NCBI GenBank assembly: GCA_009777835.1
Contig: WRKZ01000001.1
Location: 23,696-87,695 of the forward strand
Length of the DNA: 64,000 nt
Source: Oscillospiraceae bacterium
GTDB lineage: Bacteria > Bacillota > Clostridia > Oscillospirales > Ruminococcaceae
Direction of reading: 5' to 3'
The stretch's first letter is position 1. Each line of letters starts with the position of its first letter. The notes beneath the pieces are model-generated. The model ran no database searches. It worked only from the letters and a program-made list of their open reading frames with translations, and was not told where the DNA came from. A program made the position numbers and the translations under genes. This document shows, piece after piece, positions 1 to 51,781 of this stretch.

Positions 1-15
1 TCGCTCAGTTCTTTA

Positions 16-465
16 ATGAGCGAAACCTTCATGGTGGGTATGGCTGCACTGTTCGCAATGGCGATTTATCTGTTGTTAGTCGCTGTTCCTGCTTATAAAG
101 ACGGAGTTGCCGAGGGGATTAAAGCCAAGAATCAAAGCCCCGATGAATCCATTGCCAAACCTAAACACACCTGGGCATTAATCGGGGTGATTTTGTGTGG
201 GGTGATGCTGATTCCCACGATTGTGTATCTGTCGGGCTCGCTTAATATGGGGGTTTATCGCTTGATTTGCGGTGCGATTTTTCCGTTGTCTTACTTTTTT
301 GAGTGGACTGTTTTGGGTGACATCGGTATTACCGAAAGGGGATTCTACGGTTTCGCGCCGTTTGTTTTTATGGGATTCTACGCATTGACGATTCCTGCGT
401 GTCATCTGGGATTTATGTTGGGCTTCGGAGATAAACTCAACAAGGATAAGATTATGTATAAGTAA
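16..465 (+). CDS. Hypothetical integral membrane protein (about 4 TM); may be 5'-truncated by the window edge
   Basis: ORF track; several hydrophobic stretches; the frame is open back to position 1. Confidence 0.7.
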   Translation: MSETFMVGMAALFAMAIYLLLVAVPAYKDGVAEGIKAKNQSPDESIAKPKHTWALIGVILCGVMLIPTIVYLSGSLNMGVYRLICGAIFPLSYFFEWTVLGDIGITERGFYGFAPFVFMGFYALTIPACHLGFMLGFGDKLNKDKIMYK

Positions 466-530
466 TTTGCAATTTGCCAAGAATTTGGCGGAGGATTTTG
501 CAAACGAACCATGATTGTGAGAATAAATTC

Positions 531-926
531 ATGCTGAACATCAAAAAAATACGCGGCGACTTCGGGGAAGCCGCCGTTTGTGCTTATTTAACAGAGCGCG
601 GTTACGAAATCATACAGACTAACTACCGCAAGTCAGGCGGTGAAATCGATATAATTGCAAATAATATTTGCTATAACGACGAAATCGTGTTCGTTGAAGT
701 CAAGACAAGAAAATTCGGAAGTTTAATTGACGGGTTGGAGTCGGTCACGCAGGAGAAAAGACGGCGAATTGTCAAGACAGCCGGTTCGTTTCTTCGGGAG
801 AATCCGCAGTTCGGTGGTATGAACGCACGATTCGATGTCGCCGCGGTAATCGTTACTACAGAAGAGTTGCCCCGGGTTCTCGAAATCGAATACATTCGTG
901 ATGCGTTTGAACCGGCTTTGCTCTGA
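531..926 (+). CDS. yraN: YraN/UPF0102 family PD-(D/E)xK nuclease-like protein
   Basis: G-x-x-GE-x-x-V..YL..GY.I...N.R...GEIDII..IVFVEVKTR...RFDV motifs; start moved to ATG 531 on family length. Confidence 0.92.
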   Translation: MLNIKKIRGDFGEAAVCAYLTERGYEIIQTNYRKSGGEIDIIANNICYNDEIVFVEVKTRKFGSLIDGLESVTQEKRRRIVKTAGSFLRENPQFGGMNARFDVAAVIVTTEELPRVLEIEYIRDAFEPALL

Positions 927-929
927 TTG

Positions 930-1358
930 TCATTGTGTCATGTGGAATTTTTCGTTTTTCTTTGCCCCGATTAAGTAAAGCAACGGTGCTGCCGAAAAGA
1001 GTATCAGCGAAAGCAAAGAGAAGATTACGATGGTCGCGGTCAGCCCCAGAAGAATCCCCGAAAGTATGACCAGTCGGTTTGATTTGTTCGGGGTGTTACC
1101 GTAGACGAGTCCCATGATTGCCACAACGAGCGAGTAAACGCCGATTAGGACTACGAACATTCCGACAACGGCGAAAGCCGCCGACATAGCCGGAAATTCG
1201 ATAGTGAAAAGCGTTAACATACTCAATAAAAAAGAAAACGCACTTCCTACGGTTGCGATTACAACCCCCGACCACATAATTATTATCGATTGAAAGAGCA
1301 GCAGAACCGAAGAGACACGAACCAAGTGTCTGCCGGGAGATTTTATCGGCTTGTTCAA
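930..1358 (-). CDS. Hypothetical membrane protein (3-4 TM)
   Basis: 142-aa hydrophobic ORF; its start overlaps the metA stop by 4 nt. Confidence 0.75.
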   Translation of the reverse strand: MNKPIKSPGRHLVRVSSVLLLFQSIIIMWSGVVIATVGSAFSFLLSMLTLFTIEFPAMSAAFAVVGMFVVLIGVYSLVVAIMGLVYGNTPNKSNRLVILSGILLGLTATIVIFSLLSLILFSAAPLLYLIGAKKNEKFHMTQ

Positions 1359-2311
1359 ATTCCGTCACCCCCTATGAAATATGACAGCGGCTGAATCTCG
1401 CCCAAATCGTAGGGAGTCCCTTTATAAACGCAGAAGTTCAGCCAGTTGGAGTACATCAAGCTTGCGTGACCCCGCCAGGTGTACAACGGCCGATTTTCGG
1501 GGGCATCGCCGGGGAAATAATTGTACGGGATTTCCGGGTTTATACCCTTCTCCACGTCTCGCTGATATTCGTTTTTGAGGGTGTTGTGGTCGTATTCGGC
1601 ATGACCCGTCACGAAGAATCGTCGGTCACTCTTATCGGCGATGATGTGCGTCCCGGAAAGCGGAGAGCTTACCAGGATTTTCAAATCTTTACAGGATTCG
1701 ACCTCTTCGGGAACAACCTCGGTATATCTCGATTGCGGTACGTAGAACACTTCGTCAAACCCTTTCAGCAACGGATGATTCCGCTCATCGCAATGGGCTT
1801 TTTGCGGATAAATCCCCGAAAGTTTCTTCGGTAATTCCCGCTTATTGATTCCGTAGTGATAGTAAAGCCCTGCCTGCGCCCCCCAACAAATGTGCATGGT
1901 GGAGTACACGTTGGTCTTCGACCACTCCATAATCGTGCAGAGTTCGTCCCAGTAAGCGACCTCCCGAAACTCTAACTTCTCGACCGGCGCACCTGTGATT
2001 ACGAGTGCGTCGAAACGTTCGTCTTTGACTTCATCAAAAGTTGTATAGAATGACGACATATGCTCACTTGATGTATTAGTCGAGGCATAGGTAGCTGTTT
2101 TTATGAGGGTTATGTCAATTTGAATCGGCGAATTCGACAGCAAGCGCATGAGCTGTGTCTCGGTTTCGATTTTAGTGGGCATCAGGTTGACAATCGCGAC
2201 TTTAAGCGGACGAATATCCTGCTTTAACGCTTCGTCAGTCGCCAAAACGAATATGTTTTCGTTTTGCAGGGTTTTATAAGCGGGCAGATTCCGCGATATA
2301 TTTATAGGCAT
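1355..2311 (-). CDS. metA: MetA-family homoserine O-acyltransferase, predicted O-acetyltransferase
   Basis: NLMPTK, ITGAPVE, catalytic C142 in ICWGAQA, GHAEY; Glu111 is the residue known to select acetyl-CoA. Confidence 0.95.
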   Translation of the reverse strand: MPINISRNLPAYKTLQNENIFVLATDEALKQDIRPLKVAIVNLMPTKIETETQLMRLLSNSPIQIDITLIKTATYASTNTSSEHMSSFYTTFDEVKDERFDALVITGAPVEKLEFREVAYWDELCTIMEWSKTNVYSTMHICWGAQAGLYYHYGINKRELPKKLSGIYPQKAHCDERNHPLLKGFDEVFYVPQSRYTEVVPEEVESCKDLKILVSSPLSGTHIIADKSDRRFFVTGHAEYDHNTLKNEYQRDVEKGINPEIPYNYFPGDAPENRPLYTWRGHASLMYSNWLNFCVYKGTPYDLGEIQPLSYFIGGDGI

Positions 2312-2347
2312 GGTGATTCGACCTTTCCGTAATGTAAGAATAACTTC

Positions 2348-2356
2348 ATTATATCA
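2348..2356 (-). promoter_or_regulatory. Extended -10 promoter (TGaTATAAT) for metA
   Basis: Minus strand reads tgatataat about 37 nt upstream of the ATG; SD ggaaagg present. Confidence 0.55.
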
Positions 2357-2363
2357 CAAACCC

Positions 2364-2407
2364 TAAACAGAATCAACCCCGGAAGCGTAAACTCCCGGGG
2401 TTGATTC
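2364..2407 (-). terminator. Intrinsic terminator after the serpin-fusion gene
   Basis: Perfect 13-bp stem gaatcaaccccgg/ccggggttgattc followed by tgttt on the minus strand. Confidence 0.75.
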
Positions 2408-2473
2408 ACAAGGAAAAAAGGAAAACAATGAAAACAAGCAGTTTTAATGGGTCGGAGTAATAATACGTGTAGT

Positions 2474-5400
2474 CTAGATTTCCAGCAACGCGCCGATGAA
2501 AATCGGTGTATTTGTCGTGTTATCAACAATCGCGAAGACGAATGGGCGGTTCAAGTCAACCTGTTTTGGTGTCAGTGACCAATCCCAAGCGTCCACGACC
2601 ACCGTTGTTACTGCCGCCGCTTTCGTGCCGGATTCATCTACTTCGATAAAAGTCTTGTGAAAAACGCCGCCGATATAGATGTTTCCATCCGGGGAGAGTG
2701 CTGTGCCGAGTTTCGAGAAGTCTGCATCGCGTTCATTGAATGCGGTAGACATTCCCATAGCTTTCAGAATATCGTTGAGTTCTATATCATATTCAAACGT
2801 GAATTTCGGCAGGAAGGTAATCAAGCCTTCTGACGGAGTTCTTGCCGACTTGAGTGCCTTGGTGATACCTTCCCCGCTCATGCTCTCGATATAGTCTTCG
2901 ATGCTTATCCCCTCATTCGGAAGGAATGCCGCAAAGGAATAGTGTCCGCCGGCATAATCTTTGGTGAAGCCGGTCGCATTTTCGGTTTGGAAGTATTTCA
3001 TGTCCTTTTGGTCGATTGCCAACATAAAGTCAACGTTTTGTTTGCTTCCGTCGGCTTTGGTGAAGTCACGTTTAATGACATCCTTCTCTTCATACTGTGA
3101 TTCCCAGGTCGAATCAAAAGCGATTGCGTTAATCAGGAACATAATGGTCAGTGGGTCGATTTCTTCCTCAGGGTTGAGGATTTCGTTAATCATGCCTTGG
3201 GTGCTTTGCGAAACCCATTCGTTAATGTCGGTGATTGCTTGGCTATCGAACGCCGACGGTTTAATCAGGGCGTTATAGAAAAGCTCATTCGTTTTAAGGA
3301 AGGCTTCCTTTATCGTGAAAATCTTCGGGGTTTCTCTGTACCAAATCGAGTTGGCGATTTCCAGTTTAGAACCCTCCACACTCGGCAATCCCGCTACATA
3401 TGCCGATAAAGCTTCGTTGAGTTGTGCGAGGCTTAATCCGCGTCCGAGTACGGCTTCCATCTCGGAAAGGGTCGTTCCGTCTGCTCCGTTAGCCGTCATA
3501 GCTAATGCAAGCAGAATCGACAGCGGCGAAACCAGATTGTTTTCGTCTGATTTTTCGGCAAAGCTCTTTTTGAATACATCAACCGTTAAATCTGCGAGTG
3601 CCGGCGCGAATTCGCTGTGCTGTTCGTACAAAAACGGTGCGGGTGCAGGCTCTTCAATCGGTTCTTTTGGTTCGGGTGCAGGGGTCGAAACGACGGTTCC
3701 GTTCAGCCCCAACGCCCCGCTTTGGGTGAAGTCTTTCAGCGACATTGAAACGACCGAATTGTTCGAAACAGCGTACGCATAATCGCCGATATACAGTCCG
3801 CGCTTGAATTCCGTTTGAGAGCCTTGGGTGTTGCTTAAAATTTCACCGAGCAGCGTGAATCCGTTTTCGGAATCATACGAAAGGAACGCAAATCCCGAAA
3901 CCTGCCCGCCCGTGGCGGATTTAATGTATGGGAAGCCGATGATATTCTTCTCCGGTACAACAAGAACCGATTTATGCTCACTTTCAAATGGGCTGCTATA
4001 GTAAGCGTAGGAACCGTTGTTTGTGTTGTTGGTGAGTTGATAAACGTCCAATTCGTTCAGCTCTTCGCCGTCTGCTACGTCAAACATGGTGATTTTAAGC
4101 CCCATGCGGACTCCGTTATCGTCGGTATCAACCCCGAAACCGAGGAGCAATCCCTCTTCGGAATCCCATTGGTGCAGATAGCGTGAGAAACCGGGAATCT
4201 TCAGTTCGCCCAGAAGAACAGGGTTAGTGGGTTCGCTTAAATCGAACGCAAACAACGGGTCGGTCTGCCAGAAAGTCACGATGTAGCCGCGGTCGCCGAT
4301 GAATCGTACCGAGTGAACGCTCTCGCCGAACCCGATTCGGTGAACCTCCGCCAAAATGTTCATACCTTCGTCAAATGTGTACAACGTTCCGCCCTGGAGT
4401 CCGTACATTTCGTCGAAATCAATCGGTACAAACGTCCGCATTGCCCAGTAAGTTCCTTGCAGACTTTCGGGAATGGGCAGAATGGTTGTGTTTTCCGATT
4501 GTTCGGGGCCTTTACCCCAAATTTCGGTCACTACCCGGAGGATGCCTTCGTGTTCGTCTAAATTGAACTGGTTGCGAATGTTCCCCTTGACCCTGCCTTG
4601 GGCGACGTATTCGATTTCGCCCGAGTCAAACGAAAACTTGTCGATGGTGGTGAAGTTTTCGTAGTTGCCGCTCCACCAACCCCATCTCCACCAGAGGTTG
4701 CTTTCGCTTCTTGTGATGTAGATGTTTTCGAGGGACGCATAAATGGTCTGAACCGAGCCGAGGTTCGCCATTACCGATACGGGGAGTTCTTCCCGCTCAA
4801 CGTCAAGCCCGCCGATTACCGTGTAGGAAATGTGGTCGAGTTCTTCCGGGAGGATGATTGATTTCCCGGGAACAATACAGCGTTCCCCGTTTGAGGTGTA
4901 GGAAGGAACGTATTCTTCAAGATTTTTGAATCCCAAACTGTCGGAGGTTGCCAGAATTTTCAGCGAAGGCGTGTAGTTGGAAATGAGGTATACGTTATTT
5001 TCCGACATTCTTGACGAGTGATATTGCCCCTTCTGCGAATAAGACGAGAGCGGCGCAGAGAAATCTCCGGCGGTATCGTACACATCCACGAATACTTCAT
5101 GCTCAAAATAAGAGATGTTGGAGGTGTAGGTCTTCCCGTTGTAGTCGTATTCGGTGGGGATTACGGTAAGGTCATGTCTGCCCCAAATCACGACCAGTTT
5201 GCCCTCATAAAGCAACATTTCATGGAGTTGGACAGCATCTTCGGGGAGGTTGATTTTAGCCTTGAGATTCATATCCCCGTTGTCGGTTTCGATAACGTTC
5301 ACGCCGATACCTTCGGAGGTGAATTTGTGTGCCGTTTCGTTATATCTGAGTGTCCCCGGCGCGACCACGTAGATGTTTTTTCCGTCGGTCTTGACTATGT

Positions 5401-5929
5401 CACCTTCTTGAATCCCTTCAACCTGGTTGTTCGTTCCGGAAAAGTCGAGTTCCGGGGTAGGGTTGCCGTCACTCCATGGGATAGAGTTGGTGGGTACTAC
5501 GAGATTACGAATTTCTCCCAAGTGCGAGTCATCCCAAAGATTCCCGCCCATTTGATGATTCCAGCCTTCAGCTTGAGTGAGTTCGTTAATCATGCGATAC
5601 AGTGTGACGTAATCGACATCGGTGTCCATTTTCGCCAACCACATCAGAATAATCAGTACGTCATCGATGGTGATTTTACCATCGAAGTTTAGGTCGAGGC
5701 GTTGTGACTCTTCCTCCGAAAGTGTGCGCATCTTCGCGAGATGTTTGAGGATTTCCAGTGCGTCGCCTATGGTGTAGGCGGCAGTTCCCGACGAGTTGCC
5801 GGAATTGACGGATTCGGTCGTTTCGGCTTCCGAAATCGAAACCGCCCCGGTTGTAAAGAGCGTGGTGAACAATAAACTCAAGCAGACAAGCAGTGCGGTG
5901 AGTTTCCTTCTTACTTTTTGTTGAAACAT
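2474..5929 (-). CDS. Secreted dockerin / beta-propeller (Beta_propel, COG4880-like) / serpin fusion protein
   Basis: Signal peptide; dockerin-like TIGDALEILKHLAKM and DLNFDGKITIDDVL; FSGTNNQVEGIQEGDIVKTDGKNIY and DPLFAFDLSEP propeller motifs; serpin SPLSI, INEWVSQST, EVDESGTKAAA hinge and NRPFVFAI. Confidence 0.88.
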   Translation of the reverse strand: MFQQKVRRKLTALLVCLSLLFTTLFTTGAVSISEAETTESVNSGNSSGTAAYTIGDALEILKHLAKMRTLSEEESQRLDLNFDGKITIDDVLIILMWLAKMDTDVDYVTLYRMINELTQAEGWNHQMGGNLWDDSHLGEIRNLVVPTNSIPWSDGNPTPELDFSGTNNQVEGIQEGDIVKTDGKNIYVVAPGTLRYNETAHKFTSEGIGVNVIETDNGDMNLKAKINLPEDAVQLHEMLLYEGKLVVIWGRHDLTVIPTEYDYNGKTYTSNISYFEHEVFVDVYDTAGDFSAPLSSYSQKGQYHSSRMSENNVYLISNYTPSLKILATSDSLGFKNLEEYVPSYTSNGERCIVPGKSIILPEELDHISYTVIGGLDVEREELPVSVMANLGSVQTIYASLENIYITRSESNLWWRWGWWSGNYENFTTIDKFSFDSGEIEYVAQGRVKGNIRNQFNLDEHEGILRVVTEIWGKGPEQSENTTILPIPESLQGTYWAMRTFVPIDFDEMYGLQGGTLYTFDEGMNILAEVHRIGFGESVHSVRFIGDRGYIVTFWQTDPLFAFDLSEPTNPVLLGELKIPGFSRYLHQWDSEEGLLLGFGVDTDDNGVRMGLKITMFDVADGEELNELDVYQLTNNTNNGSYAYYSSPFESEHKSVLVVPEKNIIGFPYIKSATGGQVSGFAFLSYDSENGFTLLGEILSNTQGSQTEFKRGLYIGDYAYAVSNNSVVSMSLKDFTQSGALGLNGTVVSTPAPEPKEPIEEPAPAPFLYEQHSEFAPALADLTVDVFKKSFAEKSDENNLVSPLSILLALAMTANGADGTTLSEMEAVLGRGLSLAQLNEALSAYVAGLPSVEGSKLEIANSIWYRETPKIFTIKEAFLKTNELFYNALIKPSAFDSQAITDINEWVSQSTQGMINEILNPEEEIDPLTIMFLINAIAFDSTWESQYEEKDVIKRDFTKADGSKQNVDFMLAIDQKDMKYFQTENATGFTKDYAGGHYSFAAFLPNEGISIEDYIESMSGEGITKALKSARTPSEGLITFLPKFTFEYDIELNDILKAMGMSTAFNERDADFSKLGTALSPDGNIYIGGVFHKTFIEVDESGTKAAAVTTVVVDAWDWSLTPKQVDLNRPFVFAIVDNTTNTPIFIGALLEI

Positions 5930-6073
5930 GGTAACGTTCTCCTTTTATATAAAGATTTGAAGCAGGGAAAATTTCCCCTCTATTAATACAAACAATCGAA
6001 AGTGCCGAAATGTTTTAGGTTTTCAAAAAAGTTTTTATTTTTTTTGCGATTTGGGGTTTTTCTGTAAAAAAGC

Positions 6074-6102
6074 TTGCTTTTTCGATTGTTATACATTATA
6101 AT
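6074..6102 (+). promoter_or_regulatory. Sigma-A promoter for the cdaR-ftsEX-metG unit
   Basis: TTGCTT-N17-TATAAT. Confidence 0.65.
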
Positions 6103-6190
6103 AGGTGGGAGTATGTCCGCCGCGCCCGATTTTTCAGTAAATCTTGGGAGAGCAAGGGATAACCTCTAAATTTTGAAAGGGGCAGAAGCC

Positions 6191-7285
6191 ATGACTAATA
6201 AAGCTTTTCAGAACGCAATCAGCCAAATGCAGGAAATCGGCGGGAATCGTGAAATCGGTATACTCGACGATGAGTTAAACGTTGTTGCCTGCAGCGAAGT
6301 CGAGAAAAACGGCAAAGTGTTATCTCTCCCGTTTTATCGGGATGAATACGAATCTCGTGCGACGGCAATCCATGAAGGGTTTACATACAAACCTTTCAGC
6401 GGTTCGGGCAAGCCGGAGTATATCGCGTTCGTTGAGGGAACCGATGAAATTGCTTCAACTATTGCTACTATGCTGACCGTTTCGCTCAATATCGTGAAAC
6501 AGCATTATGAAGAGAAGTATGACCGGAACAATTTCGTTAAAAATATAATACTCGATAATATATTCCACGGTGAAATCGGAATCAAAGCGCGGGAACTCCA
6601 TTTTAATCCCGATGTAACGCGGGTCGCACTTTTGATTCGGGTGGGGAGCCAGGTTGACGTTTCGGTTCTGGAAGTCATACGCAACCTCTTTCCCGATAAA
6701 AGCAAGGATTTTGTTTTTAATATTTCCGAGAATGATGTTGTGCTGGTTAAAGAAATCCGCCACAACACCGATACAAAAAACCTCGAAAAACTGGCGCGTT
6801 CGGTTTCCGATACGCTTTCGGGGGAATTTTTCACTCGTTCGGTTATAGGAATAGGTCTGCCCGTAACGGGAATCCGTGAGCTTGCACGCTCTTTCAGGGA
6901 TGCACAGACTGCTATTGAAGTCGGCAAGGTTTTCGATACGGATAAGAGCATAATCAGCTATTCAAACCTGGGAATCGCCCGTTTGATATATCATTTGCCG
7001 ACCGCACTTTGCGATACCTTCCTGGCTGAAGTCTTCAAGCGCGGCGGAACAATCGAAACGCTTGACCATGAGATTATGTTTACGATTCAGCGGTTTTTCG
7101 AGAACAGCTTGAACGTTTCCGAGACGGCGCGCAAACTCTTCGTTCACAGGAACACGTTGGTTTATCGTCTCGATAAAATCAAGAAGATGACCGGGCTCGA
7201 TTTACGTGATTTCGAAGATGCGATTGTCTTCAAACTCGCCCTCATGGTGAAGAAATACCTCTTAACTAACCCTATGAAGTTCTAA
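6191..7285 (+). CDS. cdaR: CdaR/PucR-family transcriptional regulator (GGDEF-like middle domain, C-terminal HTH)
   Basis: LNVSETARKLFVHRNTLVYRLDKI PucR HTH; typical position upstream of ftsE. Confidence 0.85.
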   Translation: MTNKAFQNAISQMQEIGGNREIGILDDELNVVACSEVEKNGKVLSLPFYRDEYESRATAIHEGFTYKPFSGSGKPEYIAFVEGTDEIASTIATMLTVSLNIVKQHYEEKYDRNNFVKNIILDNIFHGEIGIKARELHFNPDVTRVALLIRVGSQVDVSVLEVIRNLFPDKSKDFVFNISENDVVLVKEIRHNTDTKNLEKLARSVSDTLSGEFFTRSVIGIGLPVTGIRELARSFRDAQTAIEVGKVFDTDKSIISYSNLGIARLIYHLPTALCDTFLAEVFKRGGTIETLDHEIMFTIQRFFENSLNVSETARKLFVHRNTLVYRLDKIKKMTGLDLRDFEDAIVFKLALMVKKYLLTNPMKF

Positions 7286-7315
7286 CGAAATTACGGTAAA
7301 GGAAATCGAAATCGT

Positions 7316-8011
7316 ATGGTTGAATTGAAAAACGTTGAGGTTCATTACGGTGAAACCGGAATCGATGCGTTGAACGATGTGAATATTCGCATTAACGACG
7401 GTGAGTTCGTGTTTATTGTCGGTGATTCCGGTGCGGGGAAGTCCACCATGCTCAAACTGCTTACCAATGAGCTTTCGCCGACAAAAGGCAGGGTTTTCGT
7501 GAACGGGTACAACCTGTCTAAACTGAAGAAGAGCAAACTCCCTAAGTTTCGGCGTTCAATCGGGATGGTGTTCCAGGATTTCCGATTGATTCCCGATATG
7601 ACTGTTTTTGAGAATGTTGCGTTCGTGTTGCGGGCAACCGATAAATCAAAGAAGGTGATTCGTCAGCGGGTTCCGTACGTGCTGAATCTCGTGAAACTCG
7701 CCGACCGGGCAAAATCGTATCCGTCGCAGCTTTCCGGCGGCGAACGCCAGAGGGTGGGAATCGCACGGGCATTCGCCACCGACCCCGGGCTGATTATCGC
7801 GGACGAGCCTACGGGAAACATCGACCCGCGGCTTTCTTACGAAATAGTCGAGCTGTTGTTGGACATTAACAAATGCGGCGCGACGGTCATTATGGTAACG
7901 CATGAGCATGATTTAGTCCAGTATTTCGGCGGGCGAATCATTAATTTGAAAGGCGGTCGGGTCGTATTTGACGATTATATCGGCGGCAGGGGCACGGGAG
8001 AAGAAGTTTGA
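7316..8011 (+). CDS. ftsE: Cell division ATP-binding protein FtsE
   Basis: GDSGAGKST, LSGGERQR, ADEPTGNID; adjacent to ftsX. Confidence 0.93.
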   Translation: MVELKNVEVHYGETGIDALNDVNIRINDGEFVFIVGDSGAGKSTMLKLLTNELSPTKGRVFVNGYNLSKLKKSKLPKFRRSIGMVFQDFRLIPDMTVFENVAFVLRATDKSKKVIRQRVPYVLNLVKLADRAKSYPSQLSGGERQRVGIARAFATDPGLIIADEPTGNIDPRLSYEIVELLLDINKCGATVIMVTHEHDLVQYFGGRIINLKGGRVVFDDYIGGRGTGEEV

Positions 8012-8048
8012 ATGTCATGCCACGTTTGTGGTAGAAAGGCATGGTCAT
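8006..8048 (+). promoter_or_regulatory. Shared leader element, copy 1 (ahead of ftsX)
   Basis: gtttgaatgtcatgccacgtttgtggtagaaaggcatggtcat; 40 of 41 aligned bases match the spoIIIAC copy, plus two 1-nt insertions. Confidence 0.8.
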
Positions 8049-8053
8049 TAAGT

Positions 8054-8971
8054 ATGAGATGGAGTAATTTTACGTATCTTGTAAAGAAGGGCGTTAATTC
8101 GGTTTGGTATAACCGAATGATGTCGTTCGCTTCGTTTTGCGTTCTGTTGGTGAGCCTGCTTATGGTGGGGCTGGCAGTTCTTGCGGCGGTGAATATAAAC
8201 GTGATTTTGAGTTATGTCGAGAATCAGAACGAGATTCTTGTCTTTGCATACGGGGACTTACCCGACAGTGATAACAATCGAATCACAGCAGAATTGCAAG
8301 GAAGTCGTTACGTTTCCCCCGGCGGGGTGGTGTTCAAGTCCAAAGAAAGGGCATGGGAAGAGTACCGCGAACAGTATCCCAATGCAGGTTCGTTGTATGA
8401 ACGCATGGAGCATATGGATTATAATCCCATGCCGAATACTTTTATCGTGACAATCAACGATTTGAGCGGAATCAAGAATGCCGAACGCACCTTCCGTGAA
8501 ATTGACGGGGTTCGTGAGGTTGCTGCCCCGCATGACTTCGCCGAGTTTCTCGTAAAAATCCGAAACACGCTGACTATTATCGGCGGTGCGGTAATCCTGG
8601 CTTTGGTGATTGTCTGCCTCGTTATAATCTACAACTCTTCAAGGGCGAGCGTTTTTGCGCGAAGGCAGGAAATCAATATCATGAAGTATGTCGGTGCGAC
8701 CAACGCTTTCGTGAAGTTTCCCTTTTTGATTGAGGGATTGTTCATCGGGATTTTAGCCGGTGTAGCTTCGTGGGGGTTGACTACCGTTGCGTATAACTCG
8801 ATTATTTCGATGTTCGGCAACGATTATATGCTTTGGCAGGTACTCGGCTTGGGCGAATTGATTGCGTTCAGCGATATTTCGTGGTACGTTCTCGCCGCGA
8901 ACTGCGCCGCAGGCTCACTCTTGAGTGCGACCGGCACGATTATGAACATGGGCAAACATCTGAAAGTCTAG
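8054..8971 (+). CDS. ftsX: Cell division permease FtsX
   Basis: N-terminal ..YLVKKG...NRMMSFAS, RRQEINIMKYVGAT, PFLIEG, four TM segments. Confidence 0.92.
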   Translation: MRWSNFTYLVKKGVNSVWYNRMMSFASFCVLLVSLLMVGLAVLAAVNINVILSYVENQNEILVFAYGDLPDSDNNRITAELQGSRYVSPGGVVFKSKERAWEEYREQYPNAGSLYERMEHMDYNPMPNTFIVTINDLSGIKNAERTFREIDGVREVAAPHDFAEFLVKIRNTLTIIGGAVILALVIVCLVIIYNSSRASVFARRQEINIMKYVGATNAFVKFPFLIEGLFIGILAGVASWGLTTVAYNSIISMFGNDYMLWQVLGLGELIAFSDISWYVLAANCAAGSLLSATGTIMNMGKHLKV

Positions 8972-9005
8972 AACCGATTATTATCTATTATAAAGGAATT
9001 TTCTC

Positions 9006-10592
9006 ATGAAAAAAAAGTTTTATATCACAACCCCTATTTACTATCCGTCGGGGGAACCCCATATCGGGCATTGTTACACCACCGTCGCCTGCGACACAAT
9101 CGCACGGTATAAGAAGTGGCAGGGGTACGACGTGTTCTTCTCTACCGGAACCGACGAACACGGCATGAAAATCGAGGAGAGCGCGAAGAAAGCCGGGACT
9201 TCTCCGCAGGAATACGTTGACGAAATCGCCGGACGATTCAAGAAACTGTGGAAGTTTATGAATATCGGCTATGACCGTTTTATTCGTACCACCGATGAAG
9301 CGCATAAGTCTGCCGTGCAGAAAATTTTCACGGCACTGTACGAAAAAGGCTATATCTATAAGGGCGAATATGCGGGTAAGTATTGCGTCCCGGATGAGTC
9401 GTTCTGGACTGCATCACAGCTCAAAGACGGTAAATGCCCGGAATGTGGCAGAGAGGTCATCGATGCAAAAGAAGAAGCGTATTTCATGAAGATGGAACCC
9501 TTCGCCGAAAGAATCGAGAAGTTACTCACCGAGGGTGATTTTCTTCAACCTTCGGCGCGGGTCAATGAAATGCTTAACAATTTCATCAAGCCCGGACTGG
9601 AAGACCTGTGTGTTTCGCGAACCAGTTTCAAATGGGGAATCCCCGTACCGTTTGACCCCGAACACGTGGTCTATGTCTGGATTGACGCACTCTCGAATTA
9701 TATCACGCTCCTGGGCTACGAAAATGATGAGTACAGTGACATGAACTACTGGCAGCCGTCAACTGTCAATTGTCAGTTGTCAACTGTTAATTGTCTTCAT
9801 ATGACGGCGAAGGAAATCGTGCGTTTTCACTCGATTATATGGCCGGCGATTCTGATGGGGTTGGACTTACCGCTCCCGAAACGCCTGTATTCTCATGGGT
9901 GGATTAACTTCGGCGGGAAGAAAATGGGCAAAAGCACCGGAAACATCATCGACCCGTTTATACTCGGCGAACGGTTCGGGGTTGATGCGGTTCGATATCA
10001 GATTCTGCGGGAAATGCCGTTTTCGGGTGATTTTGATTTCTCTAACGAACTCATGCTCAATCGAATCAACACCGATTTAGCCAACGATTTAGGTAATCTG
10101 GTTTCTCGAACCGTCGCAATGGTAATCAAATATTTCGACGGGGCTATTCCTGTTTCATCGCTCAAGTTTGAATCGGGCGAAGACAGTGATTTGATGACTA
10201 AAGCTGCGAATTTACGGAATAAAGTTGATGAGTTAATCGAAACCCCTAAATTGTCGGAGGCGTTGGGTGAAATTTTTGCGGTGATTTCTCGTGCGAACAA
10301 ATATATTGATGAGACTACGCCGTGGGTTCTCGCCAAAGATGAGACGAATAAGCCGCGACTTGCGCAGGTTCTGTATAATCTGCTTGAGACCATTCGGATT
10401 TGTTCGAGTTTGTTGGCGGCGTTCATGCCGACTTCGATGAAACTGGTATGGGAACAAATCGGCGTTTCGGAATCGGAAGGGGATGTGACCTACGAAAAAG
10501 CCGGCGTTTGGAACGATGCGTTCAATTATACCGTTAAGAAAGGTGATATAATCTTCCCGCGGTTCGACATTGCAAAAGAGTTGGAGGGGTGA
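9006..10592 (+). CDS. metG: Methionyl-tRNA synthetase, short form without the C-terminal tRNA-binding domain
   Basis: ITTPIYYPSGEPHIGH, GTDEHG, LCVSR, WGIPVP, YVWIDAL, KMGKS (KMSKS variant); ends right after IFPRFD. Confidence 0.95.
   Translation: MKKKFYITTPIYYPSGEPHIGHCYTTVACDTIARYKKWQGYDVFFSTGTDEHGMKIEESAKKAGTSPQEYVDEIAGRFKKLWKFMNIGYDRFIRTTDEAHKSAVQKIFTALYEKGYIYKGEYAGKYCVPDESFWTASQLKDGKCPECGREVIDAKEEAYFMKMEPFAERIEKLLTEGDFLQPSARVNEMLNNFIKPGLEDLCVSRTSFKWGIPVPFDPEHVVYVWIDALSNYITLLGYENDEYSDMNYWQPSTVNCQLSTVNCLHMTAKEIVRFHSIIWPAILMGLDLPLPKRLYSHGWINFGGKKMGKSTGNIIDPFILGERFGVDAVRYQILREMPFSGDFDFSNELMLNRINTDLANDLGNLVSRTVAMVIKYFDGAIPVSSLKFESGEDSDLMTKAANLRNKVDELIETPKLSEALGEIFAVISRANKYIDETTPWVLAKDETNKPRLAQVLYNLLETIRICSSLLAAFMPTSMKLVWEQIGVSESEGDVTYEKAGVWNDAFNYTVKKGDIIFPRFDIAKELEG
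9759..9795 (+). repeat. Five tandem heptamers inside metG
   Basis: tcaactg tcaattg tcagttg tcaactg ttaattg tc, encoding STVNCQLSTVNC. Confidence 0.85.
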
Positions 10593-10603
10593 CTTCGACA
10601 CCC

Positions 10604-10632
10604 TTGACAAACATGAAAATCTATGCTATGCT
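10604..10632 (+). promoter_or_regulatory. Sigma-A promoter, probably giving a leaderless mRNA
   Basis: TTGACA-N17-TATGCT, with the ATG 6 nt downstream and no SD. Confidence 0.65.
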
Positions 10633-10638
10633 CTTCAC

Positions 10639-11817
10639 ATGAAAGTTATTATCAGCTATATAATGCTTCTTTCGGTTATAACCTTGTTCACGCTGTTTCT
10701 CGATGCGGTAAGCGGCTTATTTGTGTTGATTATTTTCATTTCTGCGATTGTTATTTCAACCGCTCTGCATATTTATGCCGTTAAGGCTTTCGATTGCGAC
10801 ATCTCGGTCAATGCGAATTTACTGGAAAAAGGCGATAAAATCGAAATGCAGGTACGCACCCCGAAAGCGGCGTTTTTTTTGCCGAGCGTTTTCGAGATAA
10901 AGTTTAAACTCTCCTACCATCTGAACTGCCGTGAAGAAATCTACGCAATCACATTGGGCAGACAGGAAAAAGCGGGGGTTTTTCTTGTTGATGCGAACTT
11001 TTGGGGAAAAGCAAATATAGAAATCGCTCAAATTAAGGCAAATGATATTCTGGGGATTTTTGCAGCTTTGCCGAATTTTGCCAAACTTAAGTCAACCGGA
11101 AGAATCTGTAAAAAAAACGTTTTCACTGTGAAGATTTTTCCCGGTATTTCGGAACTTTCTCACAAAGCCGAGTTAATTCGGACGCTGGAGGATGCCAGTA
11201 TTCACGACGATAACGACCAAAGCAGGGAAATCCCTTTCGCTTTTACGGGATTCCCGGGGTACGAACATCGGGATTATGTACCCGGCGACCCGCTCAAGAG
11301 TATTAACTGGAAACTTTCGGCGAAACGTGATAAATTATTCGTCCGTAAACCGGAAGCGTATGCGGGCGGTGACATGGCACTCTTTCTCGATAGTAGGTGC
11401 GCCCCGCAAAGCGAGGAGTTCATTCGGGGGCGAATCGCCGAACAGTCCGCGCTTGAATCTATGTTGGCACTGGCACAAACCCTTTCAAAACAAGAAATCT
11501 TGTGCAGGGTTTACGTTCTGTTCGATGGGGAATGGGGGGTCACTTCGGTTCAAGGGGCAGATGATATAGAAAATCTGCGATTCGCGCTTACCGAATATTC
11601 TTACCGCGAAGACGGCGAAAGGCTTCCTTCTGTTTCGGAGGAAAACGCAAGCGGATTCGTTATATTCACGGCGAACCCCGATGAGGATTTGTATTCGCAA
11701 ACCGAAGCACTTCGGCATAAAGGCAATAATCCGGAAATCGTATCGCCGATTCAAGGTATTTGCAGTGACTGGCTAATTCAAGAGAACGACAGCGAAATCA
11801 GTTTTGTCAGGAGTTAG
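10639..11817 (+). CDS. DUF58 domain-containing membrane-anchored protein
   Basis: HRDYVPGDPLKSINWKLSAKRDKLFVR motif; N-terminal TM pair; upstream of a transglutaminase-like gene. Confidence 0.85.
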   Translation: MKVIISYIMLLSVITLFTLFLDAVSGLFVLIIFISAIVISTALHIYAVKAFDCDISVNANLLEKGDKIEMQVRTPKAAFFLPSVFEIKFKLSYHLNCREEIYAITLGRQEKAGVFLVDANFWGKANIEIAQIKANDILGIFAALPNFAKLKSTGRICKKNVFTVKIFPGISELSHKAELIRTLEDASIHDDNDQSREIPFAFTGFPGYEHRDYVPGDPLKSINWKLSAKRDKLFVRKPEAYAGGDMALFLDSRCAPQSEEFIRGRIAEQSALESMLALAQTLSKQEILCRVYVLFDGEWGVTSVQGADDIENLRFALTEYSYREDGERLPSVSEENASGFVIFTANPDEDLYSQTEALRHKGNNPEIVSPIQGICSDWLIQENDSEISFVRS

Positions 11818-11822
11818 AGTTT

Positions 11823-13874
11823 ATGAAGGCTATAATCAAATCTGTTTTGTTCCCGTGTTTACTTAGTTTTGTGACTTCCGTATCGGTTTTCTACGTCTAT
11901 GAAAGCGGCGGATTCTTCAGCCACTTTTTTCCTATAATGGCGATTCTTGCAGGGAACGCATTTTTGTTCTGCGCTTATGAGAAGTTACGGCTCAAAAACA
12001 AGACCTGGTTTTCGACCATCGTTGTCATTATTGGGCTGATTTTCGTGTTGTTTATAGCGATTCAGTTGATTTTCGCTCAAGGGGACGGATTATATCGGCA
12101 TTTTACCGAATGGTTTTTCAAGACCGGGGATACCGTCTTGTATTTCCCGTGGTTTACGGCGGCATTGATGGTTATGTACGTTCCTTTTATTTCGTCAACG
12201 ATTTTCTACTTCACGAATGTGCGGTATAATGCTTTTTTCGTAATGCTGACCTGTATGACGACCTTCGCGCTTTATGCTAAGACTTTTACGGCGATTCCTT
12301 TCATTTTCCCATCTTTGATTATAGCGTTGTTCCTGTTTGTCTCAATCGAGAAGCGTTGGTATAACCCGGCAGCGAATCGGGCGTTGAATTACGGCAAGTT
12401 TGTCGCAACCGGGGCGTGTTTCGTGGCGTTGTCGGCGTACATAGCGGGACTGTTTCCGCCTGCCGAGACCACCCCTTACCGACAGAAATTCGACGACTTG
12501 ATTACCGGGGGAATGACCGGACTGCTCGACCTGGCGGGATTCTCAATCGACGGAAACGTTTCCGGCACTTCCACCCCGTTAACGGTTGATGATGAGCGGA
12601 TTTTGTTTCAGGTTTATAACGAAACCTCGGACGAAATCGGATATTTGCGGCGGCAGGTGTTTGATTACTGGACGGGGGAGGAATGGGAACACAATGATTC
12701 CGGCGGGATGACCTGGGTAGCCCGGTACGTTGAAAATTTGAGTGAACCCTTTGTGTTAGGGTCGTCGCAGGAATTCGTGATGATTCAGGAATTCGTGATG
12801 ATTCGTATACTGACCTACAGCGATATCGGCTATTTGCCGGTTCCGCCGAATTCTGCGGGAATTTACTTTCCGGATGAGCAAATCCCGAAATCGATTCGCG
12901 GGGAGTACTACGTCCAGGGGCGGCGGCGTTCGCATTTTAACAAGGTCTACACCCTCGAATACACTAAATCGCCCTCCGAGGCGAGTGAACCCCTCTTTTA
13001 CGATTATGAGCGTGAGTGGTACATGGATTCCACTCTGGGACTGTACGCACCGGTTGACTATATGGAGGAAATCCGTGAGCTTGCACTTGAAATCACTGCA
13101 GATTACGACAGTGTCTACGATAAAGCCGCTGCGATTGAACAGTATTTCTATAACGGAGAGTTCAAGTACGACGCGGGTTTTATTCCCGAAACCAAAGCGG
13201 TGGAGTATTTCTTGTTCGAGTCTAAAACCGGGACTTGTTCCGATTTCGCAACCGCTATGACGATTCTTGCACGGGCGGCGGGAATCCCTGCACGATATGT
13301 CGAGGGGTACGTTTTAGATGAATCGGCTAAAACAGATGAAAATGTCTACATCGTTCAGGTCAAACATTCCCACGCATTCCCCGAAATATATATCGAGGGC
13401 GAAAACGGCGGCGAATGGGTGATTTTCGAGCCGACCATTCCCGGAGAATCCCGCGAAAGAAGCGGGTTCGGTTATGTAGGTGTGCTTACCGTGCTGATTT
13501 CTCTCGGCGGGGCAGGAGTAGGAAGCCTGCTTTTCGTTATTTTCGTATTGCCGAAAATAAAGGAACGCAGATTCCGTCAAAGGCTTCAAGATGCTTCTGC
13601 GGATGAGCAGGTTTGCCGGGTTTATAATCGGATTTATTCGCTGTTCATGAAGGAAATGGGCATTAATGAACGTACGTTGTCTTCGGGGGATTTAGACCGA
13701 TTCGCAAATGCGAGATACCGAACCGAGCTTTCGATGCTTACCGCAAACTACGATAGAGTGGTATACGGTGGAATTCCCGCTGTTGAAGGGGATTTTCCGG
13801 GGCTTTATGTAAGGTTTTTTGAGGCTGTTGAAGCTGTCCGAAAAGAATCGAAAAAGCGGGCAAAAAAGAATTAA
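11823..13874 (+). CDS. Membrane transglutaminase-like protein (TgpA-like)
   Basis: Multiple TM segments followed by GTCSDFA (Cys), GIPARYVEGY and HSHAFPEIY (His/Glu). Confidence 0.88.
   Translation: MKAIIKSVLFPCLLSFVTSVSVFYVYESGGFFSHFFPIMAILAGNAFLFCAYEKLRLKNKTWFSTIVVIIGLIFVLFIAIQLIFAQGDGLYRHFTEWFFKTGDTVLYFPWFTAALMVMYVPFISSTIFYFTNVRYNAFFVMLTCMTTFALYAKTFTAIPFIFPSLIIALFLFVSIEKRWYNPAANRALNYGKFVATGACFVALSAYIAGLFPPAETTPYRQKFDDLITGGMTGLLDLAGFSIDGNVSGTSTPLTVDDERILFQVYNETSDEIGYLRRQVFDYWTGEEWEHNDSGGMTWVARYVENLSEPFVLGSSQEFVMIQEFVMIRILTYSDIGYLPVPPNSAGIYFPDEQIPKSIRGEYYVQGRRRSHFNKVYTLEYTKSPSEASEPLFYDYEREWYMDSTLGLYAPVDYMEEIRELALEITADYDSVYDKAAAIEQYFYNGEFKYDAGFIPETKAVEYFLFESKTGTCSDFATAMTILARAAGIPARYVEGYVLDESAKTDENVYIVQVKHSHAFPEIYIEGENGGEWVIFEPTIPGESRERSGFGYVGVLTVLISLGGAGVGSLLFVIFVLPKIKERRFRQRLQDASADEQVCRVYNRIYSLFMKEMGINERTLSSGDLDRFANARYRTELSMLTANYDRVVYGGIPAVEGDFPGLYVRFFEAVEAVRKESKKRAKKN
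12768..12803 (+). repeat. Perfect 18-bp in-frame tandem duplication
   Basis: caggaattcgtgatgatt x2 = QEFVMI QEFVMI. Confidence 0.9.
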
Positions 13875-25304: not shown

Positions 25305-25454
25305 GCTCTTGTTTAGCTTTCAGCCTCGTCAAGCTCACCTGCTCGACGACGAAGTTGCCGACCCGTGAGCTCTTGTTTAGCTTTCAGCTTCGTCAAGCTC
25401 ACCTGCTCGACGACGAAGTCGCCGACCCCGTGAGCTCTTGTTTAGCTTTTAGCT
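25305..25454. repeat. Repeat family A: 2.3 tandem copies of a 64-65-bp palindromic unit
   Basis: Units start at 25305, 25369 and 25434 (gctcttgtttagctttcagc..gtcaagctcacctgctcgacgacgaag..gccgaccc..gtga). Confidence 0.9.
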
Positions 25455-44783: not shown

Positions 44784-45015
44784 AGAATGGGGGATTCTCC
44801 CCCAAACCCCCTGTCGCTTCGCAGGGAAACCCTGCTTCGCTCCCTAAAGAATGGGGCTTCGCCCCAAACCCCCTCACCTGCGGAGGCAGAGCCGCCTTGG
44901 TTCCCTAAAGAATGGGGGATTCTCCCCCAAACCCCCTGTCGCTTCGCAGGGAAACCCTGCTTCGCTCCCTAAAGAATGGGGGCTTCGCCCCAAACCCCCT
45001 GTCGCTTCGCTCCCT
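44784..45015. repeat. Repeat family C: BIME-like mosaic of four palindromic units
   Basis: Units of 64, 61, 64 and about 43 bp at 44784, 44848, 44909 and 44973, each agaatgggg-hairpin-cccaaaccccct; units 1 and 3 identical. Confidence 0.92.
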
Positions 45016-49493: not shown

Positions 49494-49609
49494 CAGAAAC
49501 TAATTAGTCCCACACTCTCCGCGGGAGAGAGTAAAAAAATAAAAACAGATTTCGGGCGGGAAAACCGCTAATGACACCCGCCCGAAACAAAATTTGGAGG
49601 TAATTCAAA

Positions 49610-50326
49610 ATGAAAAAAATGGTAAAACTCATGTCAATAATCGTAGCTATCGCTATGATTGCTTCTCTCGCAGTTAGCGCATCCGCTTCTGCAGGCACTC
49701 CGAACACTGCCGGAGAAAAAGGAATCGTATTCGGTTTCGTAAACAATGACCCGACTAAGTTGGCACTTATCGTTCCGGACGGCGGAACTACCGGTATTGC
49801 CGGTTGGGGATTCGTTGACATCAAAATCGTTCCTCCTGCAGGCGGAACCATCAATGCACGTCCGTCAGCTGCTGACGAAGACCTTGACATCACTAACACC
49901 CCCGGTTCCAGCGTAGTTGAAGGCACCTACGGCGGCGGCGTTGTATTCCCTGAATTTTTTGCAGGCGGATTCGTTGTTGCAACTTGGAACGTAACCGGAA
50001 CCGGCGACTTCGTAATCACCGGTGACTACACTTATGACCCTGAAGGCGCTGATAATGAAGATTTCACATTGAACCTTACCGTAAGCAACGTATTCGGAAG
50101 CACCGAAACTACCGTTGCAACTCAAGAAACCGCTGCACCTACCGAAACAACTGAAGGCGGAACTGAAGAAGGAACTCAAGCAACTGCAGCTCCTACCGCA
50201 GCTCCTACCGCTGCTGCTACCACCACTTCGGGAACCACTCCTAAAGGCGGCGTAGCTCTCGCAATCATTCCTACTTTGGCAGCTGCCGGCGCAGCAGTCT
50301 TCGCAGCTTCCAGAAAAAGGAAGTAA
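49610..50326 (+). CDS. Sortase-signal surface protein with a ~135-aa beta domain (candidate cohesin/anchoring scaffoldin)
   Basis: Signal peptide, beta-strand domain, T/A/E linker, TPKGG-hydrophobic-RKRK tail; the cohesin call is a loose pattern match only. Confidence 0.65.
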   Translation: MKKMVKLMSIIVAIAMIASLAVSASASAGTPNTAGEKGIVFGFVNNDPTKLALIVPDGGTTGIAGWGFVDIKIVPPAGGTINARPSAADEDLDITNTPGSSVVEGTYGGGVVFPEFFAGGFVVATWNVTGTGDFVITGDYTYDPEGADNEDFTLNLTVSNVFGSTETTVATQETAAPTETTEGGTEEGTQATAAPTAAPTAAATTTSGTTPKGGVALAIIPTLAAAGAAVFAASRKRK

Positions 50327-50442
50327 GACTAACCTAATGTCAAGGCTTTGACATTGCAAACAGGTAATATGCGGGCGGTAGATTAGCTCTGCTGCCCGCT
50401 TTTACAACTAAAATTAGAGGGAAAATCTGGAGGAATACTAAC

Positions 50443-50718: not shown

Positions 50719-50733
50719 TCGCATCACGCGATG

Positions 50734-50768
50734 AACGACGCCGGGATTTTTCCGGCGTCGTTTTATTG
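50734..50768 (+). terminator. Intrinsic terminator closing the surface-protein operon
   Basis: aacgacgccgg/ccggcgtcgtt stem followed by ttatt. Confidence 0.8.
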
Positions 50769-50772
50769 AAGA

Positions 50773-51759: not shown

Positions 51760-51781
51760 ATTGAGAGTCTAATCTTAATCC

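Follow-up and report, generated by a model that had tools for sequence, protein, structure and literature searches.

Serpins equipped with a dockerin are thought to protect cellulosomes and cell surfaces against proteases in fibre-degrading gut communities. They were already named as a known class by the initial annotation of the DNA studied here, and the literature bears this out: SIGN-Doc-SERPIN ORF01368/01369 are known from R. flavefaciens FD-1 (PMC2930009) and dockerin serpins are also found in C. thermocellum (bioRxiv 10.1101/2020.04.21.053413). These cellulosomal proteins of R. flavefaciens FD-1 and Clostridium thermocellum consist of a signal peptide, an N-terminal dockerin, a Pro-rich linker and an inhibitory-type serpin. 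In the 64-kb stretch of DNA that was analysed (the window), we find a protein with the same four elements, but with a propeller of about 580 aa and a spacer inserted between the dockerin and the linker. It is a variant of the known dockerin-serpins that is new in its propeller.

The protein is encoded by a single ORF of 1151 aa on the minus strand (2474..5929), to which all features below refer. It starts with ATG, and a ribosome-binding site, AAGGAGA (5938..5944), can be read in the sequence 8 nt 5′ of the ATG at 5929. The predicted signal peptide, MFQQKVRRKLTALLVCLSLLFTTLFTTGAVSISEA (aa 1-35, 5825..5929), has a hydrophobic segment beginning at residue 9 and then a signal-peptidase-type site; cleavage between SEA and the following E was called by eye with the -3/-1 rule. 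The dockerin occupies aa 45-101 (5627..5797) and is followed by a spacer (aa 102-162, 5444..5626) composed of a short conserved helix, DYVTLYRMINELTQ, and a disordered stretch. In the AF2 model the helix corresponds to model residues 12-25 and pLDDT is below 50 across residues 28-62; a DYxxxY motif is conserved in the alignment (A2). The PF09826 (COG4880-type) beta-propeller (aa 163-744, 3698..5443) is complete to its natural C-terminus, with Pfam matching Beta_propel at aa 163-733 (E=1.9e-125, profile positions 1-494 of 495) and an all-beta AF2 model (pLDDT 86.9, pTM 0.89). A Pro/Glu-rich linker, TVVSTPAPEPKEPIEEPAPAPFLYEQ (aa 745-770, 3620..3697), resembles the dockerin-to-serpin linker of the stand-alone dockerin-serpins compared (P0081, P0086 and the serpin of locus L165), and leads into a complete serpin domain (aa 771-1151, 2477..3619; stop codon 2474-2476), matched by Pfam PF00079 at aa 778-1149 (E=7.8e-88, profile positions 3-368 of 370). 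Both E-values are far beyond chance, and the succession of signal peptide, dockerin, propeller, Pro/Glu linker and complete serpin in one ORF, as first annotated, is confirmed.

The dockerin is the only one of these domains that Pfam scores below its cut-off (Dockerin_1 at aa 54-94, 20.7 bits vs 22.9). Its second repeat is canonical, with the loop DLNFDGKITIDD (D79-x-N-x-D-G-x-I-x-x-x-D90) and the helix VLIILMWLAKM, and its first repeat retains the helix TIGDALEILKHLAKM with a degenerate loop (N-S-S-G-T-A-A-Y-T-I-G-D). The segment can be aligned by eye to the dockerins that the nearest propeller relatives carry at their N-termini. The call is probably sound despite the sub-threshold score, because the segment is clearly homologous to relatives' dockerins that pass the cut-off, namely those of P0017 (27.2 bits), P0018 (25.6 bits) and the third gene of locus L168. 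As for a docking partner, Pfam recognised no cohesin among the four candidate proteins examined within the window. The domain encoded at 49610, which had been put forward as such a partner, was given up as a cohesin: it has no Pfam match, a single homologue and an unusable model (pLDDT 35.6).

The serpin half is 56-58% identical to the dockerin-serpins P0081, P0084 and that of L165, and its closest solved relative is tengpin (2pef/2vh4), to which it aligns end to end (E about 1e-98). Tengpin, from Thermoanaerobacter tengcongensis (PDB 2pef, 2pee, 2vh4), is a proven inhibitor that forms SDS-stable complexes with elastase (PMC1905895). The hinge E-S-G-T-K-A-A-A-V-T fits the inhibitory pattern (P17 Glu, P15 Gly, P14 Thr/Ser, small residues at P12-P9) and is near-identical to ELGTKAGAVT of tengpin, including Val at P9, so that its initial reading as an inhibitory-type hinge holds. 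Both proteins have the C-terminal motif LNRPF(I/V)FAI(I/V)DN, and the fusion protein shows the C-terminal serpin signature VDLNRPFVFAI. Tengpin differs in its reactive loop (...VDITAAGIPV...) and requires its own N-terminal peptide to hold its native state. In the fusion serpin, hinge and reactive-centre loop, ESGTKAAAVTTVVVDAWDWSLTPKQVD, span aa 1099-1125 (2555..2635), and 27 residues separate P17 and the beginning of LNRPF (26-29 in relatives). If Glu1099 is taken as P17, a count of 17 residues leads to the same predicted scissile bond as before, P1-P1′ Trp1115-Asp1116 (2582..2587), with Ala1114-Trp1115 as the alternative. The same count places Thr, Glu, Asn, Arg and others at P1 in the closest relatives, which leaves room for a register error of one or two residues; among 35 relatives the hinge is conserved and P7-P5′ is hypervariable. 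The chymotrypsin- or elastase-like specificity that had been proposed is not established, as the residue count was its sole basis.

The propeller belongs to a family with a rather different setting. Its best relatives are 45-50% identical, and the PF09826/COG4880 proteins of Clostridia, such as those of R. flavefaciens FD-1 (L037), Blautia producta (L067) and Dorea ammoniilytica (L040), have the same propeller at about 30% identity and share the motifs SDTNNQVEGVxEGDIVKTDG and TFxQTDPLFxxDLSDP. These are single-pass membrane proteins linked to ECF sigma factors, whereas the fusion protein has a predicted cleavable signal peptide, a dockerin and a serpin, and no adjoining sigma gene. Across the family, the propeller gene is immediately preceded by an ECF sigma gene in about 100 of 160 loci (59 of 80 at species level), 110 of 164 PF09826 ORFs begin with a cytoplasmic tail and then cross the membrane, and one member carries an RsgI_N anti-sigma N-terminus. 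Since the typical PF09826 protein crosses the membrane once and its gene follows that of an ECF sigma factor, its propeller is probably the sensor domain of an anti-sigma factor. The initial annotation had passed over both the sigma-factor linkage and the membrane anchoring of most members. At the fusion locus no sigma gene lies upstream, the upstream gene being a divergent PucR-type regulator, and no sigma match was obtained at L001, L003 or L165. Nor does the fusion protein have a cytoplasmic N-terminal tail and transmembrane helix, its hydrophobic segment starting already at residue 9. Other approaches to the propeller were less informative: a PDB sequence search with its profile gave no match, Foldseek with the model returned only generic multi-propeller proteins such as DDB1 (TM about 0.3), searches of the literature on PF09826/COG4880, on anti-sigma factors with propellers and on chagasin with propellers yielded nothing relevant, and the ECF re-classification paper makes no mention of a propeller in its main text.

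The combination of dockerin, propeller and serpin looks unique in public data. No second protein with both propeller and serpin was present among the best 150 matches from 1.84 billion representative proteins, in line with the initial impression of an unrecognised three-domain architecture. Two candidates for fusions in reverse order, P0200 (1154 aa) and P0211 (757 aa), proved to be tandem triple and double serpins, respectively. The fusion protein is a singleton, with one member sequence on one MEGAHIT-style metagenome contig.

Its two halves nevertheless exist as separate neighbours elsewhere. In the termite-gut contig L165 the gene order is PucR, FtsE, FtsX, propeller P0003, propeller P0009 and a 464-aa dockerin-serpin, which shares the strand of P0009 and is separated from it by 58 nt, so that dockerin-propeller and dockerin-serpin are separate genes there. 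The fusion gene has the same PucR-FtsE-FtsX neighbours, L003 and L165 show synteny with its flanks, and L165 contains near-best relatives of both halves (propeller 48% identical to P0003, serpin 56%). Signal peptide, dockerin, linker and serpin, in just this order, make up the closest stand-alone serpin relatives (P0081, P0084, P0086 and the L165 serpin). The unfused neighbours in the syntenic L165 thus represent a visible precursor, which argues for an origin by fusion: a gene for signal peptide, dockerin and propeller would have been joined in frame to a neighbouring gene for signal peptide, dockerin, linker and serpin, whereby the serpin would have lost its own signal peptide and dockerin. 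The FtsEX-propeller adjacency was found only in the close relatives L003 and L165. A link between PucR and the propeller in Lachnospiraceae loci was discarded as incidental, because further genes (an aconitase and the sigma gene in L040) separate the propeller from PucR, which is 3.5-4.5 kb upstream, and Rfam found nothing in positions 1-12000 of the window.

A protein known from a single metagenome contig, whose junction is without read coverage and falls inside a low-complexity Pro/Glu linker, invites the suspicion that an assembly or sequencing error has merged what are two separate genes in the organism. As to expression, termite-gut metatranscriptome contigs match both halves, one on the serpin half with 4 mismatches in 206 nt and two on the propeller half with 0 and 1 mismatches, and in the two termite-gut metatranscriptomes none covers the propeller-serpin junction. 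Yet a point error cannot delete the roughly 90 residues of signal peptide and dockerin that precede the serpin in its stand-alone relatives, and the propeller reaches its natural end and the serpin begins at its natural start, in frame. The GC content is even over the fusion region, no minus-strand promoter or terminator motif is found near the junction, and the synteny of the flanks with L003 and L165 likewise speaks against an artefact. Taken with these observations, an artefact appears very improbable.

If the fusion is genuine, it could still be of little meaning. A chance deletion may have joined two genes for cellulosome-type surface proteins, each module keeping its own job or the propeller acting as a spacer. 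The fusion is, after all, a singleton, and dockerin-propeller genes occur in tandem arrays (L165, L168), which makes any downstream gene a likely fusion partner. Most propeller loci are devoid of a serpin: none was found near the propeller in the 160 other loci, and we therefore rejected a general serpin-propeller neighbourhood. The secreted-clade loci L003, L084, L168, L169 and L170 are likewise without serpin linkage, and together these absences mean that a functional coupling could be local or accidental. Against mere chance, the adjacency recurs in both gene orders, with propeller before serpin in L165 and, in the termite-gut contig L002, serpin before propeller at a distance of 21 nt. Neither domain is damaged, their boundaries are clean, and transcripts match each of the halves. 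Moreover, the propeller has independently been fused to an inhibitor in L027, an uncultured Clostridia MAG (CALZBV010000050.1), where it carries a C-terminal chagasin-type Inhibitor_I42 (79.9 bits). This protein is like ours in being secreted, with a lipoprotein-type signal peptide, and in having a peptidase inhibitor C-terminal to a PF09826 propeller, but it has an inhibitor of cysteine peptidases instead of a serpin and no dockerin. The adjacencies in L165 and L002 and the fusion in L027 provide independent support for propeller and serpin belonging together, and we consider a fortuitous union of unrelated modules quite unlikely. Two Bacillaceae-type propellers named “inhibitor of cysteine peptidase” by JGI (P0062 and P0077) were dropped from the comparison, as Pfam finds no Inhibitor_I42 in them.

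It is tempting to go further and to regard the propeller itself as a protease-recognition module, whose anti-sigma form would detect extracellular proteases and whose secreted form would capture them, or be cut by them, and pass them to the attached inhibitor. Two unrelated inhibitor families (serpin, I4; chagasin, I42, in L027) are found C-terminal on secreted propellers, two of the three C-terminal additions that Pfam recognises in about 164 members are peptidase inhibitors, and serpin genes adjoin propeller genes in L165 and L002. On the other hand, a single domain serving for both serine and cysteine proteases is unparsimonious, the Foldseek search gave no hint in this direction, and the absence of a nearby serpin from 160 other loci does not favour it either. 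We regard this possibility as unlikely.

We rather favour, with moderate confidence, a genuine surface-docked suicide inhibitor of serine proteases in which the propeller is a binding module, the gene having been born by fusion of neighbours. The host is a termite-gut Clostridia bacterium, probably of the Oscillospiraceae. The protein would be exported by the Sec pathway and tethered through its N-terminal dockerin to the cell surface or to a cellulosome-like scaffold. A serine protease, likely a chymotrypsin-like digestive enzyme of the host or a subtilisin-like microbial enzyme, would then cleave the exposed serpin loop, possibly at the predicted Trp1115-Asp1116 bond, and insertion of the cut loop into beta-sheet A would trap the protease covalently. 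The propeller, which the initial annotation took for a targeting or bait module, may have been recruited to position the inhibitor beside the propeller's ligand; in most of its relatives it would face outwards and serve as the sensor of an anti-sigma factor anchored in the membrane.

A broader and speculative idea, which we hold to be improbable as it stands, is that PF09826 serves quite generally as a module for recognising proteases. Hundreds of Clostridia would use it as an extracellular ECF anti-sigma sensor that signals an attack by foreign proteases, comparable to RsiV, which reports lysozyme, and in termite-gut bacteria it would have been freed, tagged with a dockerin and wired to inhibitors (the serpin, or the chagasin of L027), capturing a protease for a suicide inhibitor at the surface.

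The finding physically couples a serpin module to a large and widespread domain that lacks an assigned function. By a Rosetta-stone argument, PF09826 gains a first functional lead, some role in protease control, from the fusion taken together with the neighbouring genes in two other termite-gut contigs and the independent chagasin fusion. If the coupling is real, it would represent a natural design for the targeting of a suicide inhibitor, and, owing to the strong linkage of the family to ECF sigma factors, the lead can be tested in gut bacteria that grow in culture, for instance Blautia producta, Dorea and R. flavefaciens.

The fused gene is one unbroken ORF of 1151 codons that fills window positions 2474–5929 on the minus strand, with a strong ribosome-binding site (AAGGAGA) read from the sequence 8 bases upstream of its ATG. 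Pfam places a Beta_propel domain (PF09826) at residues 163–733 with nearly the whole profile covered (E=1.9e-125) and a serpin domain (PF00079) at residues 778–1149 covering the whole profile (E=7.8e-88), separated by a linker of 26 residues, TVVSTPAPEPKEPIEEPAPAPFLYEQ; no NCBIfam model matches the protein. Its N-terminus, with a K/R-rich start, a hydrophobic core from residue 9 and an SEA|E site, reads as a predicted classical signal peptide. The Dockerin_1 segment (residues 54–94) scores 20.7 bits, slightly below the Pfam cut-off of 22.9 bits. The predicted dockerin assignment holds despite this score, because an alignment by eye pairs this segment with the dockerins at the N-termini of the nearest propeller relatives (P0002, P0003, P0009, P0017 and P0018), two of which pass the cut-off. 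These relatives and the window protein have the same unusual layout, where the calcium loop of repeat 1 is degenerate and repeat 2 is canonical (DLNFDGKITIDD in the window protein). ORF reading, Pfam and alignment confirmed the signal peptide, N-terminal dockerin, propeller, linker and serpin where the initial annotation had placed them.

In a JGI metagenome locus, L165 (sample 3300038395), a PucR-type regulator, FtsE, FtsX, two dockerin-propeller proteins (P0003 and P0009) and a dockerin-serpin are encoded on a single strand, the last starting 58 nt after P0009. The PucR-FtsE-FtsX block adjoins the fused gene in the window as well, and near-best relatives of both its propeller and serpin halves are found on L165. 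On a Nasutitermes hindgut contig (L002), a serpin gene is followed 21 nt on by a propeller gene. In the fusion, the propeller is complete to its natural C-terminus and the serpin starts at the conserved (E)F(A/I)PA motif, which is located after the linker in stand-alone serpins; compared with the separate genes, the fusion lacks the stop codon and spacer, along with the signal peptide and dockerin that the serpin would carry by itself. Judged from its sequence, the fused gene is a clean, domain-level joining of neighbouring genes. The contig that holds it stems from an ENA metagenome assembly, yet creation of the fusion by assembly or sequencing is very improbable: a point error could not yield such a clean domain-level fusion, the two sides of the junction have no repeat in common, which makes an assembly chimera improbable, GC content is uniform over the fusion region, and a motif search detected nothing resembling a promoter or terminator near the junction on the coding strand. 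Metatranscriptome contigs from two termite-gut data sets (runs X1 and X2; 2017) match both halves at window 3266–3471, 5013–5278 and 5425–5646 with 0–4 mismatches each (4 in 206 nt for the serpin-half contig, 0 and 1 for the two propeller-half contigs), and none of them spans the propeller–serpin junction. Matches to both halves thus place the organism and its transcripts in an independent data set of 2017. The fused gene is probably real, though a singleton.

The three-domain architecture had been unfamiliar from the start, and three database searches agree that a combination of propeller and serpin is unusual. In a word-indexed search of 5.8 billion proteins, the whole-protein query retrieved propeller-only relatives, with both domains in the query alone, and the best 120 matches to the serpin-only query were nothing but serpin-only proteins. 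Exhaustive HMMER searching of 1.84 billion cluster representatives gave no propeller and serpin combination besides the query among the 150 matches listed, down to 282 bits, an end under which fusions of far more divergent domains might fall. Two long candidate fusions, P0200 (1154 aa) and P0211 (757 aa), were rejected as triple and double serpins, carrying three and two complete serpin domains, respectively, in tandem within single polypeptides. The nearest known relatives are only ~50% (propeller) and 58% (serpin) identical; so few members of the lineage have been sampled, which partly accounts for the “unique” status of the fusion.

The window protein is a dockerin-serpin into which a propeller of the sensor type has been inserted, a variation on known dockerin-serpins. 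This dockerin-serpin architecture has already been catalogued in R. flavefaciens FD-1 (PMC2930009) and reported in C. thermocellum, where a recombinant serpin inhibited subtilisin best (bioRxiv 10.1101/2020.04.21.053413). The closest relatives of the serpin half (56–58% identical) are termite-gut or Oscillospiraceae proteins, and the order signal peptide, dockerin, Pro-rich linker and serpin is found in P0081, P0084, P0086, P0089 and the L165 serpin. The best solved relative is tengpin (E ~1e-98), a bacterial serpin whose complexes with elastase are SDS-stable and which requires an N-terminal peptide to remain metastable (PMC1905895); the equivalent segment in the window fusion would be tethered to the propeller. 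The hinge ESGTKAAAVT, proposed to be of inhibitory type, satisfies the inhibitory consensus and is almost identical to that of tengpin, and the C-terminal signature VDLNRPFVFAI is found. Counting from Glu1099 as P17 reproduced the predicted P1-P1' site, Trp1115-Asp1116. Among 35 relatives compared, the hinge is almost invariant and P7 to ~P5' hypervariable, as would be expected for inhibitors with diversified targets, and the same count puts Thr, Glu, Asn, Arg, Cys, Tyr, Trp and others at P1; given this variety the loop register, and hence the specificity, is only a prediction. On another contig (L164:1489-5932), three tandem dockerin-serpin genes (P0081, P0084 and P0089) overlap by 4 nt. As their dockerins are near-identical while their reactive loops differ (count-based P1 Arg, Thr and Ala), the trio looks like a small specificity array.

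Our literature search found no paper discussing PF09826/COG4880, and a sequence search of the PDB found no relative of the propeller half. Its AF2 model is confident (pLDDT 86.9, pTM 0.89), and in a structure search its only matches are multi-propeller proteins of a generic kind, DDB1 for example (TM ~0.3). We surveyed the context of 160 loci encoding propeller relatives, 80 of them from species representatives in GTDB and 80 from metagenome contigs (L004-L163). In 100 of the 160, the propeller ORF is directly preceded by a same-strand gene for an ECF-type sigma factor, whose end lies 350–1000 nt ahead of the first propeller alignment; this gene is the sole conserved neighbour (59 of the 80 species-level loci). 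Examples are R. flavefaciens FD-1 (L037), Blautia producta DSM 2950 (L067) and Dorea ammoniilytica (L040), where the sigma (8965–9543) and propeller (9536–11440) ORFs overlap by 8 nt. Moreover, 110 of 164 propeller ORFs begin with a hydrophilic tail of 25–120 residues and then have a hydrophobic helix; this layout, a cytoplasmic tail plus a single transmembrane helix, is the one that single-pass anti-sigma factors have, and one member, encoded behind a sigma gene, has an RsgI_N anti-sigma N-terminus. There, a 269-aa sigma-like protein (L017:8532-9341) is followed by the propeller protein (L017:9407-11659; RsgI_N 29.4 bits). This layout is the one used by the polysaccharide-sensing RsgI proteins of cellulolytic clostridia. 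On the grounds of sigma adjacency, topology and the RsgI_N member, the typical PF09826 protein appears to pair, as an anti-sigma factor, with an ECF sigma factor, its propeller facing outward as the sensor. No such class is described in the literature found, the body text of the ECF re-classification paper included, and the family would seem to be a widespread and undescribed kind of anti-sigma factor with a propeller sensor. Among PF09826 proteins, the window protein is one of a secreted minority, made up of dockerin-bearing, often tandem-duplicated termite-gut genes (L003, L165, L168), lipoproteins (L002, L027) and Bacillaceae forms. Two dockerin-propeller paralogues stand in tandem at L165:2861-8163 and three at L168:36-6748, the latter array having behind it a gene for a PDZ/S41 C-terminal processing peptidase.

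As for the docking partner, the domain encoded at 49610–50326 had been put forward. The protein of this ORF combines a signal peptide with a domain of ~140 residues, followed by a linker rich in Thr/Ala and a membrane anchor at the C-terminus. Pfam gave no match for it, the homologue search found one relative and its structure model was too poor to use (pLDDT 35.6); nothing in these results marks it as a cohesin. It is a reasonable candidate because it lies directly after the window's only other dockerin-motif protein (45675–49493). The interpretation in the initial annotation is partly supported: the modules and the inhibitory-type hinge are, its docking partner is not. The 45675–49493 product, a secreted protein of 1272 aa, contains a large duplication within itself and stretches rich in Ser/Ala and Thr/Ser, and has its dockerin at the C-terminus. 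Three small proteins come after it (49610–50326, 50983–51759 and 51869–52834), each made up of a signal peptide, a domain for which Pfam gives no significant match, a linker rich in Thr/Ala/Glu and a membrane anchor at the C-terminus, and the cluster 45675–52834 may be an uncharacterised surface-assembly locus. Long-unit tandem repeats lie at 44784–45010 (63 nt x 3.6, intergenic) and 25305–25454 (64 nt x 2.3). Within the methionyl-tRNA synthetase ORF, the 7-nt unit GTCAATT is repeated 5.4 times at 9758–9795, read as STVNCQLSTVNC, and ORF 11823–13874 contains a perfect 18-nt tandem duplication, QEFVMIQEFVMI, at 12768–12804; these two are either true in-frame insertions or assembly oddities.

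On the reading that we find likeliest, the fused protein would be exported and, through its dockerin, anchored to a surface or scaffold protein that bears a cohesin, where the serpin would work as a suicide trap on gut-lumen serine proteases and the propeller, as a binding module, would decide where, or on what, the inhibitor acts. A serpin was found in none of the 160 general propeller loci, so the link is no family-wide rule. That two unrelated modules were joined by accident seems unlikely to us. Serpin linkage occurs in 3 of the 8 loci examined from the secreted termite-gut clade, as a fusion in the window and as neighbouring genes in L165 and, in reverse order, in L002, with none in L003, L084, L168, L169 and L170. 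C-terminal additions to the propeller are rare (median tail 27 residues), and only three are recognised by Pfam: two peptidase inhibitors of unrelated families and one DUF3221. Besides the serpin, the second inhibitor is found in an uncultured Clostridia MAG (L027:4400-6799), whose 799-aa protein runs from a lipoprotein-type signal through a PF09826 propeller to a C-terminal Inhibitor_I42 domain (residues 702–785; 79.9 bits against a cut-off of 27.2; NPSTGY motif) of the chagasin-type cysteine-peptidase inhibitor family. These additions are suggestive, not conclusive, in tying the propeller to proteases. The propeller might itself be a protease sensor, which we consider rather doubtful, as inhibitors of both serine and cysteine proteases sit on it; for the same reason we favour, for the propeller as binding module, a ligand other than one particular protease, such as a surface, a glycan or some other shared feature. 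The fusion is chiefly valuable as a Rosetta-stone clue to PF09826, a large uncharacterised domain family, and the apparent typical partnership of this family with an ECF sigma factor is a side result of value.
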